Source: a virus (lineage: Duplodnaviria > Heunggongvirae > Uroviricota > Caudoviricetes). From it: a DNA stretch of 4,335 nucleotides. The DNA is taken from IMG/VR virus record IMGVR_UViG_3300011952_000033. One strand, written 5' to 3'. The position numbers and the translations under genes were made by a program. Below the pieces are notes generated by a model that was not told where the DNA came from, did not search any database, and was given only the letters and a program-made list of their open reading frames with translations. Of this stretch, positions 61 to 4,335 are shown piece by piece (within the stretch, counting starts at the first letter, position 1; the number at the start of each line of letters is the position of its first letter).

Positions 61-1518
61 TTAGGAGCGCCAAAAAAAACCTGAAAACAATATAATAACA
101 GGATAAATTTCAAGGCGACCAAGAATCATAGCTATGCACATTAAACATTTTGCAATGTCATTAAGCACTCCGAATGACGATGCAGTAGCCCCAAAACCTA
201 ATCCCATATTATTAATACATGCAGCCACTGTTGCAAATGATGTAAGAAAATCATATCCCATACCATTTAACACCAGTATAAAAAACGCCGTGAAGAGAGT
301 ATAAAGAAAAAAGAAACTCCATACAGACCTCATTACACGATCTGTAACTATCTTCCCTCCTACATTTACACTCAACAACGCTCTGGGATGAGAAAGCTGA
401 TTTATCTCGTGTTTGCTTTGTTTGAAAAGTATAAGAAATCGAAGTGACTTAATTCCACCACAAGTTGAACCTATACATCCCCCAAAGAAACTTGACAACA
501 GCAAAAACACTATCGTGTGCGTGGGCCAACTTGCATAATCCTGCGTAGCTAAACCATTATCAGTGAGCATGGAGCTGGCAAGAAAAAACGAATGAATAAA
601 ACTTCCATGCAAGTCATACATACCTATATGCCAGACCTGGAAAGAGGTAACAATGATCACCCCTAAGGCTATTAACAGAAAGAAACGAAGTTCAATATCT
701 CTGATTAAAGGTTTTATCGTTTTCCTGCTAATAACAATATACCAAAGAGTGAAGTTGAAAGCCGATAGCAGGGAAAAAGAACCAGCCACCAGCTCAACCA
801 AATAGTTATTAAAATATCCGATACTCTCGCTATGAGTTGAGAAACCACCAAGCGAAACTGTGGAAATCCCGTGACAAATAGCATCAAACAAAGGCATTCC
901 TGCAAGTCTATAACAGACAATACAAGCAATACCTAATAAAGAATAAGTTATCCACAGTGTCCGTGACGTATCGGCCAGGCGGGGAGTGAGTTTGTCATCC
1001 TTAAATGGCCCCGGCATTTCTGACTGATAAAGCTTTGCACCACCAATACCCAATAATGGCAATACAGCAACCGCCAGAACAATAACTCCTAAACCACCTA
1101 TAAAATTTAACTGTGACCGATAGTACAAATATGCCCGAGGTAATGAACTAACATCATCAATTACAGTTGCTCCTGTTGTTGTTATTCCAGAAACCCCTTC
1201 AAACAGAGCATCAATGAACGTTAAATTAAGTTCTGAGTCAATCCATAAAGGGAATGCACTAATAACAGAAAACAAAATCCAAAACATTACAATTATAATA
1301 AACCCATCACGGGTACGTAATTGAATGCCAGATTTCTTAGTTGTATACCACGCTCCGCCACCAATGCAAAAAAATATAACGAAAGTTATAAAGAAAACGA
1401 ACAGGCTTTTTTCTTTATAAAACAATGCTACAACCATTGGTGGCAACATTGAAAGACTATAGAGCCAAACCAGGAACCCACACATATGAGTAACAACTCT
1501 TACATGAGATGTATTCAT
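61..1518 (-). CDS. trkG: Trk-system potassium uptake protein TrkG (TrkH/KtrB superfamily)
   Basis: Long ORF 61..1536 (track start is TTG). Translation is a polytopic membrane protein with four glycine-containing pore-loop segments typical of TrkH/KtrB (GITTTGATV, STVSLGGFS, LTDNGLATQ, NNMGLGFG). N-terminus from the ATG at 1516-1518 (MNTSHVRVVTHMCGF...) matches my recollection of E. coli Rac-prophage TrkG (485 aa). Alternative TTG start at 1534-1536 is preceded by AAGGTGG (plus 1543-1549). Confidence 0.9.
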   Translation of the reverse strand: MNTSHVRVVTHMCGFLVWLYSLSMLPPMVVALFYKEKSLFVFFITFVIFFCIGGGAWYTTKKSGIQLRTRDGFIIIVMFWILFSVISAFPLWIDSELNLTFIDALFEGVSGITTTGATVIDDVSSLPRAYLYYRSQLNFIGGLGVIVLAVAVLPLLGIGGAKLYQSEMPGPFKDDKLTPRLADTSRTLWITYSLLGIACIVCYRLAGMPLFDAICHGISTVSLGGFSTHSESIGYFNNYLVELVAGSFSLLSAFNFTLWYIVISRKTIKPLIRDIELRFFLLIALGVIIVTSFQVWHIGMYDLHGSFIHSFFLASSMLTDNGLATQDYASWPTHTIVFLLLSSFFGGCIGSTCGGIKSLRFLILFKQSKHEINQLSHPRALLSVNVGGKIVTDRVMRSVWSFFFLYTLFTAFFILVLNGMGYDFLTSFATVAACINNMGLGFGATASSFGVLNDIAKCLMCIAMILGRLEIYPVIILFSGFFWRS

Positions 1519-1655
1519 ATCTAAATATTCTTTCAATTATAACCACCTTGCTGCAATATTATGATTATACTGTATAAAATTTAACTCCTCTTAGATCTTA
1601 CTTCACTGTTCCTTATGAAACAATCATCAAAATGAATCATATTGTAGTTAAGATT

Positions 1656-2120
1656 TTACTTTAAACACTGCTCGGTTATGTATTGCTGAGCACCTTCAAG
1701 TTGGGCCTGCATCATTACCAGTCGTTCCCGGAGGGTGAAATAATCCCGTTCAGCGGTGTCTGCCAGTCGGGGGGAGGCTGCATTATCCACGCCGGAGGCG
1801 GTGGTGGCTTCACGCACTGACTGACAGACTGCTTTGATGTGCAACCGACGACGACCAGCGGCAACATCATCACGCAGAGCATCATTTTCAGCTTTCGCAT
1901 TAGCTAACTCCTTCGTGTATTTTTCATCCAGTGCAGCAACATCACGCTGGCGCATCTGCATGTCAGTAATTGCCGCGTTCGCCAGCTTCAGTTCTCTGGC
2001 ATTTTTGTCGCGCTGGGCTTTGTAGGTAATGGCGTTATCACGGTAATGATTAACAGCCCATGACAGGCAGACGATGATGCAGATAACCAGAGCGGAGATA
2101 ATCGCGGTTACTCTGTTCAT
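1656..2120 (-). CDS. Rz: Rz i-spanin (inner-membrane spanin subunit)
   Basis: ORF 1656..2132 (track start is GTG). From the ATG at 2118-2120 the product ([55 protein letters not shown]...) is near-identical to lambda Rz as recalled: N-terminal TMD plus coiled-coil periplasmic domain. Start overlaps the R stop as ATGA. Stop TAA at 1656-1658. Confidence 0.9.
1715..1900 (-). CDS. Rz1: Rz1 o-spanin (outer-membrane lipoprotein spanin subunit), embedded in +1 frame of Rz
   Basis: 61-aa ORF wholly inside Rz in a different frame; ATG at 1898-1900. Signal peptide with lipobox ([20 protein letters not shown], then T at +2), proline-rich PPPPP segment. Near-identical to lambda Rz1 as recalled. Confidence 0.9.
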
Positions 2121-2614
2121 TGCTGACCCCACAAACAGATTTCACGCTCAATCTCACGACGAGTCATGAGACCTTTCCATTGCTTACCGCCAGCATATGT
2201 CCAGCGACGTAGCTGATCACATGCGCCTTTGATATCGCCCTGGTTTATTTTGCGAAGAAGCGTCGATGTTCTGAAATTGCCAGCGCCCACGTTGTAAACG
2301 AACGAGTAAAGAGCGCCGCGCGTTGTTTCCGGTATATCGACTTTGATGTACGGGTTAATTTGTCTGGCGACCGTGGCAAGGTCTTTATTCAAGAGTGTTT
2401 TGCATTCTGCTTTGGTATACGTTTTACCGAGCATGATGTCTTTTCCTGTATGCCCGTGACATACAGTCCATACACCAACAATATCTTTGTATGGTATGTA
2501 GCTGACACCTTCCAGACCATCGTTACCACTTGGGCCAGTGATTAACACTGATGCTATAGCAATTGCTCCGCCACCAATAGCAGCAGCAACGACTTTTCGT
2601 AATGATGGAGGCAT
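2117..2614 (-). CDS. R: SAR endolysin (phage-21 R-type lysozyme, GH24 family)
   Basis: 165-aa ORF, ATG at 2612-2614. N-terminal weakly hydrophobic Gly/Ala-rich signal-arrest-release segment ([20 protein letters not shown]) followed by a lysozyme domain ([25 protein letters not shown]...). Essentially matches phage 21 R as recalled. Start overlaps S stop (TAATG). Confidence 0.9.
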
Positions 2615-2829
2615 TATTCACCTCTCGCAGCCTTGCGCTTATCTTCTTTAATCTTGAAATAAAGGTTTGTCAGGTACGTCAGCAGGCCAAATACCAGACT
2701 ACCCAGCACACCGATTGCAGCCCACTGTGACGGAGTTACTCTATCGAGCAACTGTAAAAACCAGTAGCCGGCACTGCCTGCGGAGGTGCCGTAGGCAATG
2801 CCTGTTGAAATTTTGTCCATGGATTTCAT
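2614..2829 (-). CDS. S: Pinholin / antiholin, phage-21 S-type with dual start (71-aa form from Met1 at 2827-2829; 68-aa form from Met4 at 2818-2820)
   Basis: Track ORF 2614..2886 starts at an upstream GTG, but the ATG at 2827-2829 is preceded by GGAGGTGAGG (SD). From there the product is [71 protein letters not shown]: two TMDs and a charged C-terminus, matching phage 21 S (S71/S68 dual-start MKSM motif) as recalled. Stop TAA at 2614-2616. Confidence 0.9.
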
Positions 2830-2928: not shown

Positions 2929-2955
2929 AATATAAAAAGCTCGCCGTAGCGAGCT
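2929..2955 (-). terminator. Rho-independent terminator between lipoprotein genes and holin
   Basis: On the minus strand: AGCTCGC-TACG-GCGAGCT (perfect 7-bp GC-rich stem, 4-nt loop; plus 2938-2955) immediately followed by TTTTATATT (plus 2929-2937). On the plus strand the hairpin is followed by an A-rich run, so it is oriented for minus-strand transcripts. Confidence 0.6.
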
Positions 2956-3080: not shown

Positions 3081-3476
3081 CTAACCTCGCATGTCAAAGC
3101 CAGATTTCTGAAAATCTCTGTAGACTTCCGGATTGTTGAAGGCCGGAAATTTGGCTTTATGAGCTGCGGACTTTATCGCTTCGCAATAGGCTTTATCACC
3201 GTTACTGGTAGATATTTTTAACGCCGTGCCATCCTGAGAGAATTCCATATGCAACCTGCATTTTTTCCCTTTCCAGTTATGCGGCTCATCAAGTTTGGCA
3301 TTAATTGCAGCTCTGATTCCCCGCGCTTGCGCCCCCCATTCATCCTGATCATCCCAGCGTCCTGAACTGCAACTACCTGTAGCAGTAGTTTTGTGGCAAT
3401 CTGAAGGGTGTAAAGGTGTGCATCCCGCAACAAAACCGACCCAAAAAGTCAACATAACGATTTTCTTTAATCCCAC
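3081..3476 (-). CDS. Putative outer-membrane lipoprotein with divergent TolA-C-terminal-domain-like region (paralog of the 3627-4055 gene)
   Basis: 131-aa ORF. GTG start at 3474-3476 preceded by GAGGAG at 6-nt spacing (plus 3484-3489). Signal peptide with lipobox MGLKKIVMLTFWVGFVAGC, T at +2. The C-terminal approx. 85 aa (GKKCRLHMEFSQDGTALKISTSNGDKAYCEAIKSAAHKAKFPAFNNPEVYRDFQ) share the motif skeleton and two conserved Cys with the neighbouring gene and with TolA domain III. Stop TAG at 3081-3083. Start codon choice (GTG vs internal ATG at M8) is uncertain. Confidence 0.75.
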   Translation of the reverse strand: MGLKKIVMLTFWVGFVAGCTPLHPSDCHKTTATGSCSSGRWDDQDEWGAQARGIRAAINAKLDEPHNWKGKKCRLHMEFSQDGTALKISTSNGDKAYCEAIKSAAHKAKFPAFNNPEVYRDFQKSGFDMRG

Positions 3477-3626: not shown

Positions 3627-4055
3627 TCAGGGTTTAAAATCCAGCACCCCATTTTGAAATACTTTATATACTTCCGGCGAAGGGGGGGCAGGTATATCAG
3701 CATTCTTTATCGCATTCATCGCTTCACGACATAAATCGAGGTCTCCACTTTCTCTTTTAACCTCCAGTAGAAGGCCATTCGGGGCCATATGCATTCTCAG
3801 TGTACACTCTTTTCCTGAATACTTACTCGCATCCCCGAACTGTTTTTCGATGGCGCTCTTGATTTGATGGGCATACAGACGGATATCCTCACTAACATCA
3901 GAAGTACGTTCAGATGAACTCACATACTGTGTCTCTATTGCTTTATCGGAGTAATATGATGTACGGTCATGATAATTTGTCGATACAGCATCAGTGCACC
4001 CGATAATAATCCCACTAATAATCAACGTAAGAATTGATGCGCTACGAAAACCCAT
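3627..4055 (-). CDS. Putative outer-membrane lipoprotein with TolA domain III-like C-terminal domain (TolA mimic)
   Basis: 142-aa ORF. ATG at 4053-4055 preceded by GAGGA (plus 4059-4063). Signal peptide with lipobox MGFRSASILTLIISGIIIGC, T at +2, then a Ser/Thr/Tyr-rich acidic linker. C-terminal approx. 83 aa (YAHQIKSAIEKQFGDASKYSGKECTLRMHMAPNGLLLEVKRESGDLDLCREAMNAIKNADIPAPPSPEVYKVFQNGVLDFKP) align without gaps to my recollection of E. coli TolA C-terminus (YAGQIKSAIESKFYDASSYAGKTCTLRIKLAPDGMLLDIKPEGGDPALCQAALAAAKLAKIPKPPSQAVYEVFKNAPLDFKP), roughly 60 percent identical by eye, both Cys conserved. Confidence 0.85.
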   Translation of the reverse strand: MGFRSASILTLIISGIIIGCTDAVSTNYHDRTSYYSDKAIETQYVSSSERTSDVSEDIRLYAHQIKSAIEKQFGDASKYSGKECTLRMHMAPNGLLLEVKRESGDLDLCREAMNAIKNADIPAPPSPEVYKVFQNGVLDFKP

Positions 4056-4114: not shown

Positions 4115-4172
4115 ACAGCGAATCAGATCAAATAAAACGCACATTTGTTAACATTTACACAAAGTCTGCGTG

Positions 4173-4193
4173 GGATATTCTGAAAGAATATCC
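4173..4193. promoter_or_regulatory. Perfect 9-3-9 inverted repeat GGATATTCT-GAA-AGAATATCC, candidate operator or RNA hairpin
   Basis: Read directly from sequence at 4173-4193. No flanking U-tract on either strand, so not a canonical intrinsic terminator. Lies about 60-85 bp upstream of the candidate -35. Confidence 0.35.
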
Positions 4194-4335
4194 ATAATGT
4201 GGAGAGAATCTATTGAAGTGCATGGTGCCGGGTGCCTCCCGGTGCTCTGGCCGAACTGGCAAACTCCAGAGCGGTGACCTTTAGACTCCGAGCATCGCAC
4301 GATAGTTACGATGCCAGTTCTCCGCGTGCGCTAGC

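Follow-up and report, generated by a model that had tools for sequence, protein, structure and literature searches.

The AT-richness and the prophage location of trkG belong to textbook knowledge; the AT-rich, foreign character of the gene has reportedly been in the literature since 1991, and the original sequence paper is said to be that of Schlösser 1991. Phage morons are cargo genes that lie between phage genes and have their own promoter and terminator. TrkH, the core-genome paralog in E. coli, shares the Pfam family PF02386 with TrkG. Both proteins work with TrkA in K+ uptake (PMC9898762, PMC5811629). According to Tanudjaja et al. (PMC9898762), trkG has a GC content of 38% as compared to 53% of trkH, is located in the Rac prophage and is partially repressed by H-NS, the repression having been judged in hns mutants and from ChIP-chip binding. 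In K-12, TrkG is able to complement the loss of TrkH, while TrkH is not regulated by H-NS and does not have the Na+ uptake activity of TrkG (PMC9898762).

Translation start of trkG has been examined previously by tetracycline-inhibited ribosome profiling (TetRP). Specifically, Nakahigashi et al. 2016 (PMC4909307, Table S2 row 92 and Fig. S5) assigned a new start at TTG with a shift of -18. TetRP signal in the three samples was 75.3, 59.0 and 35.7 at the TTG and 0, 11.8 and 0 at the annotated ATG. When each codon was mutated in trkG-lacZ fusions, the double mutant gave the highest activity, and the N'-peptide field for trkG is empty in the TetRP table (PMC4909307). The UUG starts of ftsH, potA and yedI are confirmed in the same re-annotation (PMC4909307), and there, as proposed for trkG, the annotated AUG gives way to a UUG upstream of it or close by, on the strength of ribosome profiling. 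It is the outcome that is different: for trkG the lacZ confirmation failed and the databases kept the ATG. A TTG start of trkG is therefore an idea that has been in print since 2016, was never confirmed and was never adopted. We did not find a trkG entry in the TRAINSPOTTER N-terminomics supplement (2026).

The window, i.e. the whole 4,335-nt stretch of phage DNA that was analysed, carries trkG behind a complete set of lysis genes. All genes of the window are on the minus strand, and in the order of transcription they are as follows:

3627-4055 and 3081-3476, minus strand: two lipoprotein genes with TolA C-terminal domains, first in transcription order
1656-2829, minus strand: lysis cassette as a whole, upstream of trkG (Pfam, PGAP)
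2614-2829, minus strand: holin essD, P21-type (Pfam Phage_holin_2_1; PGAP)
2117-2614, minus strand: lysozyme rrrD (Pfam Phage_lysozyme; PGAP)
1656-2120, minus strand: Rz (Pfam Phage_lysis; "lysis protein" in PGAP)
1715-1900, minus strand: Rz1, embedded in Rz (Pfam Rz1)
61-1536, minus strand: trkG coding sequence from TTG, 491 codons and a stop (open reading frame list)
61-1518, minus strand: trkG coding sequence from ATG, the RefSeq/PGAP form, 485 aa

Rz is followed by a 137-nt spacer and then by trkG, which is last in transcription order. The closest described relative is TrkG of K-12 (b1363, Rac, WP_001097895.1), also encoded 3' of Rz. From the ATG on the two proteins are 100% identical, and the protein proposed here is six residues longer than the 485-aa reference model. 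The lysis cassette of the window (holin, lysozyme, Rz/Rz1) is intact; K-12 Rac presumably keeps mere remnants of it. Rac-type prophages of E. coli are 99.8% identical to the window, and PGAP names their genes trkG, rrrD, essD and "lysis protein". Positions 1440-1700 are 100% identical in K-12 strains, and K-12 experiments on the trkG start consequently apply to the window. Matches to the lysis genes occur in 5,327 E. coli genomes, whereas 1,546 of 5,426 contain the trkG start region; in one O157:H7 record the match is limited to the Rz end (window 1656-1700). Since the start region is at least 99% identical in 1,468 of 1,550 E. coli records, variation within the species is uninformative, and a trkG start allele like that of E. 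albertii was not found among the E. coli alleles. A 7-nt length difference in the phage record ON470609 is a run of Ns and not a real indel. The GenBank phage record ON470595.1 carries the 1476-nt TTG form of trkG; in the PGAP/RefSeq annotation the gene is still 61-1518.

Product of the gene is a member of the TrkH/TrkG family, with a full-length match to Pfam TrkH PF02386 above the curated cut-off (E=1.2e-144; 482.9 bits, cut-off 27; residues 46-489 of the 491-aa form). Its identity as TrkG and not TrkH is indicated by 100% identity to cluster P0001, which is named TrkG, and by its location in a lambdoid prophage 3' of Rz. The GC content of trkG is 0.381 (GC3 0.323), that of Rz 0.514, of lysozyme 0.470 and of holin 0.481, and the interval from the Rz stop to the ATG (1519-1655) has a GC content of 0.255. 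The preliminary description had seen trkG as an AT-rich cargo gene of foreign origin. This is borne out by a GC content of 0.381 against 0.47-0.51 for the lysis genes, and prior literature agrees. No other sampled gene of the TrkG clade is as AT-rich as the alleles of E. albertii and E. coli (GC 0.38); E. fergusonii and Pectobacterium have 0.42-0.43, Citrobacter 0.46 and others 0.50-0.57, roughly tracking the flanks. We propose that trkG is a composition-distinct cargo gene ("moron") that was inserted 3' of Rz/Rz1, the spanin genes, in a lambdoid prophage of the Rac type: both its GC and its GC3 differ from those of the flanking phage genes. It resembles a moron also in lying after the lysis cassette, in being expressed in the lysogen and in having a possible terminator of its own. 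This is a terminator-like hairpin ~90 nt past the stop codon of trkG, a short way beyond the window (L001 2974-2951), whose stem has 10 bp (7 GC) and whose T tract is weak. Unlike the defining elements of a moron, promoter and terminator of trkG are both putative.

The sequence of the minus strand around the trkG start is ACAGTATAATCATAATATTGCAGCAAGGTGGTTATAATTGAAAGAATATTTAGATATGAATACA. It contains the following elements:

1543-1549, minus strand: Shine-Dalgarno (SD) sequence AAGGTGG, with a 6-nt spacer (TTATAA) before TTG
1537-1539, minus strand: in-frame TAA, abutting TTG on its 5' side; also present in E. albertii and E. fergusonii
1534-1536, minus strand: TTG, the proposed true start, 18 nt or six codons upstream of ATG (ribosome signal, conservation)
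1516-1518, minus strand: ATG, the conventional start, Met7 of the 491-aa form

Since this TAA closes the frame, an upstream extension of trkG can begin nowhere but at the TTG. Predicted duplex energy with the 3' end of 16S rRNA is -7.7 kcal/mol 5' of TTG as compared to -0.9 kcal/mol 5' of ATG, and the other genes in the window have SD duplexes of -5.4 to -10.8 kcal/mol. In other words, trkG has an in-frame UUG preceded, within 4-10 nt, by an SD that is stronger than the one at the ATG. When the spacer was dinucleotide-shuffled 5,000 times, 40 of the shuffles (0.8%) had an upstream start in frame whose SD reached at least -7.0 in strength and was spaced 4-10 nt from it, and the SD-TTG pair therefore exceeds what is expected by chance. 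The positions of ATG, TTG, AAGGTGG and TATAAT given in the preliminary description are all correct on the minus strand, and so is its statement that the ATG has no recognisable SD, the duplex there being only -0.9 kcal/mol. Significant RNA structure that would hide either start was not found in the start region, and masking of one start by structure is rejected on these grounds (z-scores +0.65 and -0.34). Farther upstream, GAGGAG at 1590-1585 is a strong SD-like site (dG -8.6). It was discarded as a sign of an upstream small ORF: no canonical start follows, and the sequence is GAACAG in E. albertii.

Comparison across genera also bears on the choice of start codon. A protein search with the 491-aa form returned many orthologs, 65-75% identical, whose annotated length is exactly 491 aa, their sources including Pectobacterium, Pantoea, Enterobacter, Rahnella and Cronobacter. 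N-termini of the orthologs, e.g. MQRYLTLNFSQVRVVIHLCGFL, MKNHYSINSSQIRVVTHICGFL and MKFNDSLHVSQLRVVLHLCGFL, align without gaps to E. coli MKEYLDMNTSHVRVVTHMCGFL. Among the best 120 cluster representatives, 26 have this N-terminal length; none of the 26 has Met at position 7, where L, I, F, V, P, H, S or A is found. At the DNA level we compared 12 genes from at least six genera, i.e. E. coli trkG and eleven ortholog DNAs (Escherichia with three genes, Citrobacter, Pectobacterium, Pantoea, Enterobacter, Rahnella, Cronobacter and three taken from assemblies of metagenomes or read archives). Opposite the TTG of E. coli in the alignment, 11 genes (E. coli included) have TTG and one (E. cloacae) has GTG, so T and G at the second and third positions of the start codon are invariant in these TrkG-clade genes. 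At the same place before it, 11/12 orthologs have an SD-like sequence of -5.8 to -10.6 kcal/mol, and E. albertii keeps AAGGTGG itself. ATG at codon 7, on the other hand, is found in E. coli, E. albertii and E. fergusonii only; outside Escherichia this codon is CTG, ATT, CTC, TTA, GTT, TTT, TTG or GCA. The frame between TTG and ATG is open and free of indels in 12/12 genes. Thus the upstream start and its SD are kept in the clade and the alternative ATG is not.

The transporters of Pectobacterium, Pantoea, Enterobacter, Rahnella and Cronobacter have the same 491-aa N-terminal length and TTG or GTG with an SD. Their genes differ from E. coli trkG in their chromosomal, ordinary non-prophage contexts, in the lack of Met7 and in GC content (0.43-0.57 against 0.38). 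The E. fergusonii gene too is in a non-phage, unrelated context, with a porin gene upstream and a DJ-1/PfpI-like gene downstream. Its DNA similarity to E. coli begins at the SD (GGAGGTATAA-TTG against GGTGGTTATAA-TTG). Conservation of the start, together with homology to E. fergusonii that sets in at the SD, indicates that SD and UUG form a unit that was already present in the ancestor of the clade and entered the prophage along with the gene. The NCBI protein of Citrobacter sp. Awk 4 has 485 aa and begins at a CTG, the codon opposite the annotated ATG in the alignment; PGAP seems here to have propagated the 485-aa model of E. coli. The cross-genus comparison is new evidence, added to that of Nakahigashi et al. 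2016.

Taking SD, footprints and conservation together, we conclude that translation of trkG very probably starts at UUG, the main alternative being minor co-use of the AUG. The suggestion of the preliminary description that the protein starts at TTG with an MKEYLD extension is thereby strengthened: SD energetics, the TetRP call at TTG -18 and the conservation of TTG and SD across genera all point in the same direction. According to this model the strong SD AAGGTGG, 6 nt before the UUG, would make ribosomes initiate mainly there, and the product would be a 491-aa TrkG, fMet-KEYLD-M-NTSHV, in which the annotated AUG is internal codon 7. We infer that the N-terminus of the protein is the UUG-encoded Met. 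UUG and SD would be ancestral in the whole TrkG clade and Met7 specific to Escherichia; this Met7 may have misled the original annotation and then every homology-based one. The RefSeq TrkG model WP_001097895.1 is probably six residues short.

Regarding transcription of trkG, three elements upstream of the coding sequence have to be considered:

1537-1655, minus strand: Rz-trkG spacer with the trkG leader, ~26% GC
1564-1569, minus strand: candidate -10 hexamer TATAAT, inside a 19-nt block (1560-1578) that is perfectly identical in E. albertii
1536-1541, minus strand: second TATAAT, overlapping the SD spacer and the first base of TTG; found in the three Escherichia alleles only and absent in other genera

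The second TATAAT (1541-1536) was missed in the preliminary description. There are seven copies of TATAAT in the window as compared to 4.5 +/- 2.1 expected, and seven were reached in 36 of 200 shuffles. For TATAAT 1569-1564 a -35 partner was not found, and the promoter scan did not list the hexamer. The sole match of the consensus scan upstream of trkG is at the end of Rz (1665-1636, TTTAAA-18-TATGAT); this promoter is disfavoured, as both hexamers differ in E. albertii. The leader is conserved. Specifically, the ~100 nt before TTG (1636-1537) share ~86% identity with E. albertii, while the synonymous sites of trkG differ at a proportion of 0.53, and the perfect runs are 1578-1560 (19 nt, the longest), 1558-1545 and 1544-1537. 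In lux reporter experiments a ~500 bp fragment, reaching from the interior of Rz to the base before ATG (window 1519), drives expression (PMC9898762). Moreover, genomic SELEX with RpoD holoenzyme gave a constitutive promoter peak assigned to trkG in Rac (PMC5811629). We did not find a trkG entry in the TSS data of Kim 2012 or of SMRT-Cappable-seq.

The preliminary description held that trkG appears to have its own promoter in the spacer, and pointed to TATAAT 1569-1564 as a -10-like hexamer. The first part of this is supported as far as a promoter of trkG's own somewhere upstream is concerned, by lux expression, RpoD SELEX, transcription in K-12 and the conserved leader; TATAAT 1569-1564, in turn, is a candidate for its -10. 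Footprints on the UUG mean that the mRNA includes the SD, and the TSS must then be upstream of 1549. Conservation of the leader fits a -10 at 1569-1564, which would place the TSS near 1557 and give a leader of ~21 nt. In a lysogen, a sigma-70 promoter within ~500 bp upstream would drive trkG, with TATAAT 1569-1564 as the best -10 candidate, and H-NS would partly repress this transcription.

Alternatively, trkG may do without a promoter of its own in the spacer, its transcripts coming from phage transcription that begins upstream and reads through, or from a promoter that lies within Rz. The active ~500 bp reporter fragment does include most of Rz and the TATAAT hexamer is statistically ordinary, but the RpoD SELEX peak is assigned to trkG, and the spacer is conserved considerably better than synonymous sites are, the longest perfect run in it being the one that covers TATAAT 1569-1564. 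The only scan match upstream of trkG is indeed at the Rz end (1665-1636) and is not conserved in E. albertii. A terminator-like site between Rz and trkG was not found in the spacer, and for this reason late read-through from Rz into trkG is possible in an induced, intact prophage; trkG is, however, transcribed and functional also in uninduced K-12. We therefore regard transcription without an own spacer promoter as rather unlikely, and favour a promoter of trkG's own upstream of 1549.

Transcription driven by the second TATAAT (1541-1536) would yield an mRNA without the TTG. This leads to another explanation, namely that Escherichia uses dual starts, UUG for a 491-aa and AUG for a 485-aa protein, the latter perhaps made from a short-leader transcript. 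Codon-7 ATG and the TTG-overlapping TATAAT co-occur in the three Escherichia alleles only, which speaks for dual starts, but the co-occurrence could equally stem from a single event of shared ancestry, and this TATAAT can also be explained as SD spacer, stop codon and TTG in a row. It does not have a -35 element, and the short-leader transcript is purely hypothetical. One TetRP replicate has a minor signal at ATG (11.8 as compared to 59.0 at TTG), which is missing in the other two of the three; the odd lacZ result would be compatible with a second start. On balance we find dual starts distinctly improbable and initiation mainly at UUG the better description.

Constraint on the extension itself has to be read with care. 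Comparison of the trkG coding sequences of E. coli and E. albertii gives pS 0.533, pN 0.043 and dN/dS 0.048, i.e. strong purifying selection. Nevertheless, there are three non-synonymous differences in the five extension codons (pN 0.237 against 0.043 in the rest, P=0.016), and 7% of the 5-residue windows in TrkG are as variable as the extension. Judged from these substitutions, the fast divergence could reflect a weakly constrained tail as well as a non-coding stretch. Across genera the weak constraint on the tail extends to about residue 12. In a sister clade (Buttiauxella, Serratia, Xenorhabdus, Morganella) the proteins are 486 aa long and start within one codon of the ATG-equivalent position. 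The start of Buttiauxella is one codon before that position, and in Morganella the start is a GTG at precisely the alignment position of the E. coli ATG, with its own GGTGG SD 7 nt upstream. Starts so close to the ATG-equivalent in the sister clade imply that a 485-aa TrkG would probably work, and TrkG probably does not depend on the six extra residues to function. What has to be decided is the codon used by E. coli ribosomes, not which TrkG protein can work.

The least convincing explanation is that SD-TTG binds ribosomes as a standby or decoy site with little or no protein made and that ATG is the only productive start: RefSeq/PGAP use the ATG, the TTG was not confirmed with lacZ fusions, E. 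albertii and E. coli have diverged rapidly in the extension peptide and the 486-aa sister clade begins at about the ATG position, and still this is hardly credible for a codon that has no SD (dG -0.9), shows zero TetRP signal in two of three samples and is CTG, ATT, CTC, TTA or another triplet in relatives that cannot start there and yet keep the upstream TTG with its SD, the frame from TTG to ATG being open without indels in 12/12 genes.

Why UUG has been kept as the start is a separate question. It is retained in at least six enterobacterial genera although AUG is one base away. This might suggest selection for a weak start with a strong SD that limits or regulates the amount of TrkG, to which AUG7 and TATAAT of Escherichia may add a proteoform or a transcript; we mention this as an unlikely idea.

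Moving the start of trkG to UUG is a minor correction of the annotation, with no new biology in it. The wrong trkG model spreads by homology, however, and in one Citrobacter genome it has even forced a CTG start. The comparative argument should settle the start codon of trkG, and comparative sequence analysis is a cheap way to settle a ribosome-profiling start call that has not been confirmed. Start choice matters for native-context expression constructs, translational fusions, start-codon mutants and the prediction of translation rate of trkG; a UUG behind a strong SD and an AUG that lacks an SD differ greatly in behaviour. As to the transporter itself, the view of the TrkG mechanism should stay as it is, as the extension is short, poorly conserved and missing in the sister clade.

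In the published trkG lacZ fusions, the double mutant of the TTG and ATG codons had the highest β-galactosidase activity (Nakahigashi et al. 2016, PMC4909307, Fig. 4). A further in-frame start-like codon was sought in the trkG-lacZ fragment fused in that study and none was found. The spacer between Rz and trkG contains a strong Shine-Dalgarno (SD)-like site, listed here with three other features of the window.
1585-1593, minus strand: SD-like TAAGAGGAG in the Rz-trkG spacer, dG of the duplex with the 16S rRNA 3' end −8.6 kcal/mol
2938-2955, minus strand: terminator-like hairpin, AGCTCGCTACGGCGAGCT then TTTTATATTG
3627-4055, minus strand: intact ORF of 142 aa, lipoprotein with TolA C-terminal domain
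4166-4335, minus strand: homologue of the STnc100 (RF02076) sRNA family, running on to 4352 in the matching E. coli genome sequence (L001)
The SD-like site is not followed by any canonical start codon at workable spacing, and it is not conserved in E. albertii, whose sequence there is GAACAG.

Regarding the relatives of TrkG, the NCBI protein of Citrobacter sp. Awk 4 (P0003, 485 aa, MNTSQL...) starts at a CTG (L027 1501-1503), and a TTG with the SD GGGGTG is located 18 nt 5' of it; the same arrangement is present in other members of the clade. It is probable that the CTG start is the 485-aa model of E. coli propagated to Citrobacter. Shigella flexneri trkG (L020, around 1480-1560) has one added base shortly after the start (GAGCTTGTT versus GAGTTGTT) that causes a frameshift, and GAA is changed to CAA in the extension. 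This copy is probably a decaying pseudogene. The TrkG ortholog of E. fergusonii (L025 1-4458; 79% identity, GC 0.42) has a chromosomal, non-prophage context, with a porin gene upstream and a DJ-1/PfpI-like gene downstream. The E. fergusonii copy could be nearer to the source of Rac trkG than any phage copy.

A second start in the window (3455-3476, minus strand) may be wrongly assigned, namely that of the other TolA-C-terminal lipoprotein gene. The ATG at 3455 used by PGAP has a weak SD (dG −4.0 kcal/mol) at a distance of 14 nt, while the GTG at 3476 on the same strand has GAGGAG 5 nt before it (dG −8.5 kcal/mol). Lipoprotein signal peptides normally have a positively charged n-region. Initiation at the GTG would give the N-terminal extension MGLKKIV and with it a positively charged n-region ahead of ...FVAGC. 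The ORF 3627-4055 has a lipoprotein-like signal (…IIIGC), and Pfam recognises a complete TolA C-terminal domain in it (E=2.4e-23). The PGAP annotation of a genome with 99.8% identity covers 3627-3887 only, as a tolA pseudogene "missing N-terminus".

The STnc100 homologue is incomplete at the window edge and scores below threshold there (30.9 bits), but its full-length counterpart in the matching genome (L001 7166-7352) reaches 86.6 bits, well over the family's gathering score (47). Its neighbours are a DUF1133-family gene on one side and the lipoprotein and lysis genes downstream. The hairpin separates the lipoprotein genes from the holin gene, and its position would put the two lipoprotein genes 5' of a candidate late-operon terminator. 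The two paralogous TolA-C lipoproteins 5' of the holin look like putative cargo genes, with a possible role in entry exclusion.
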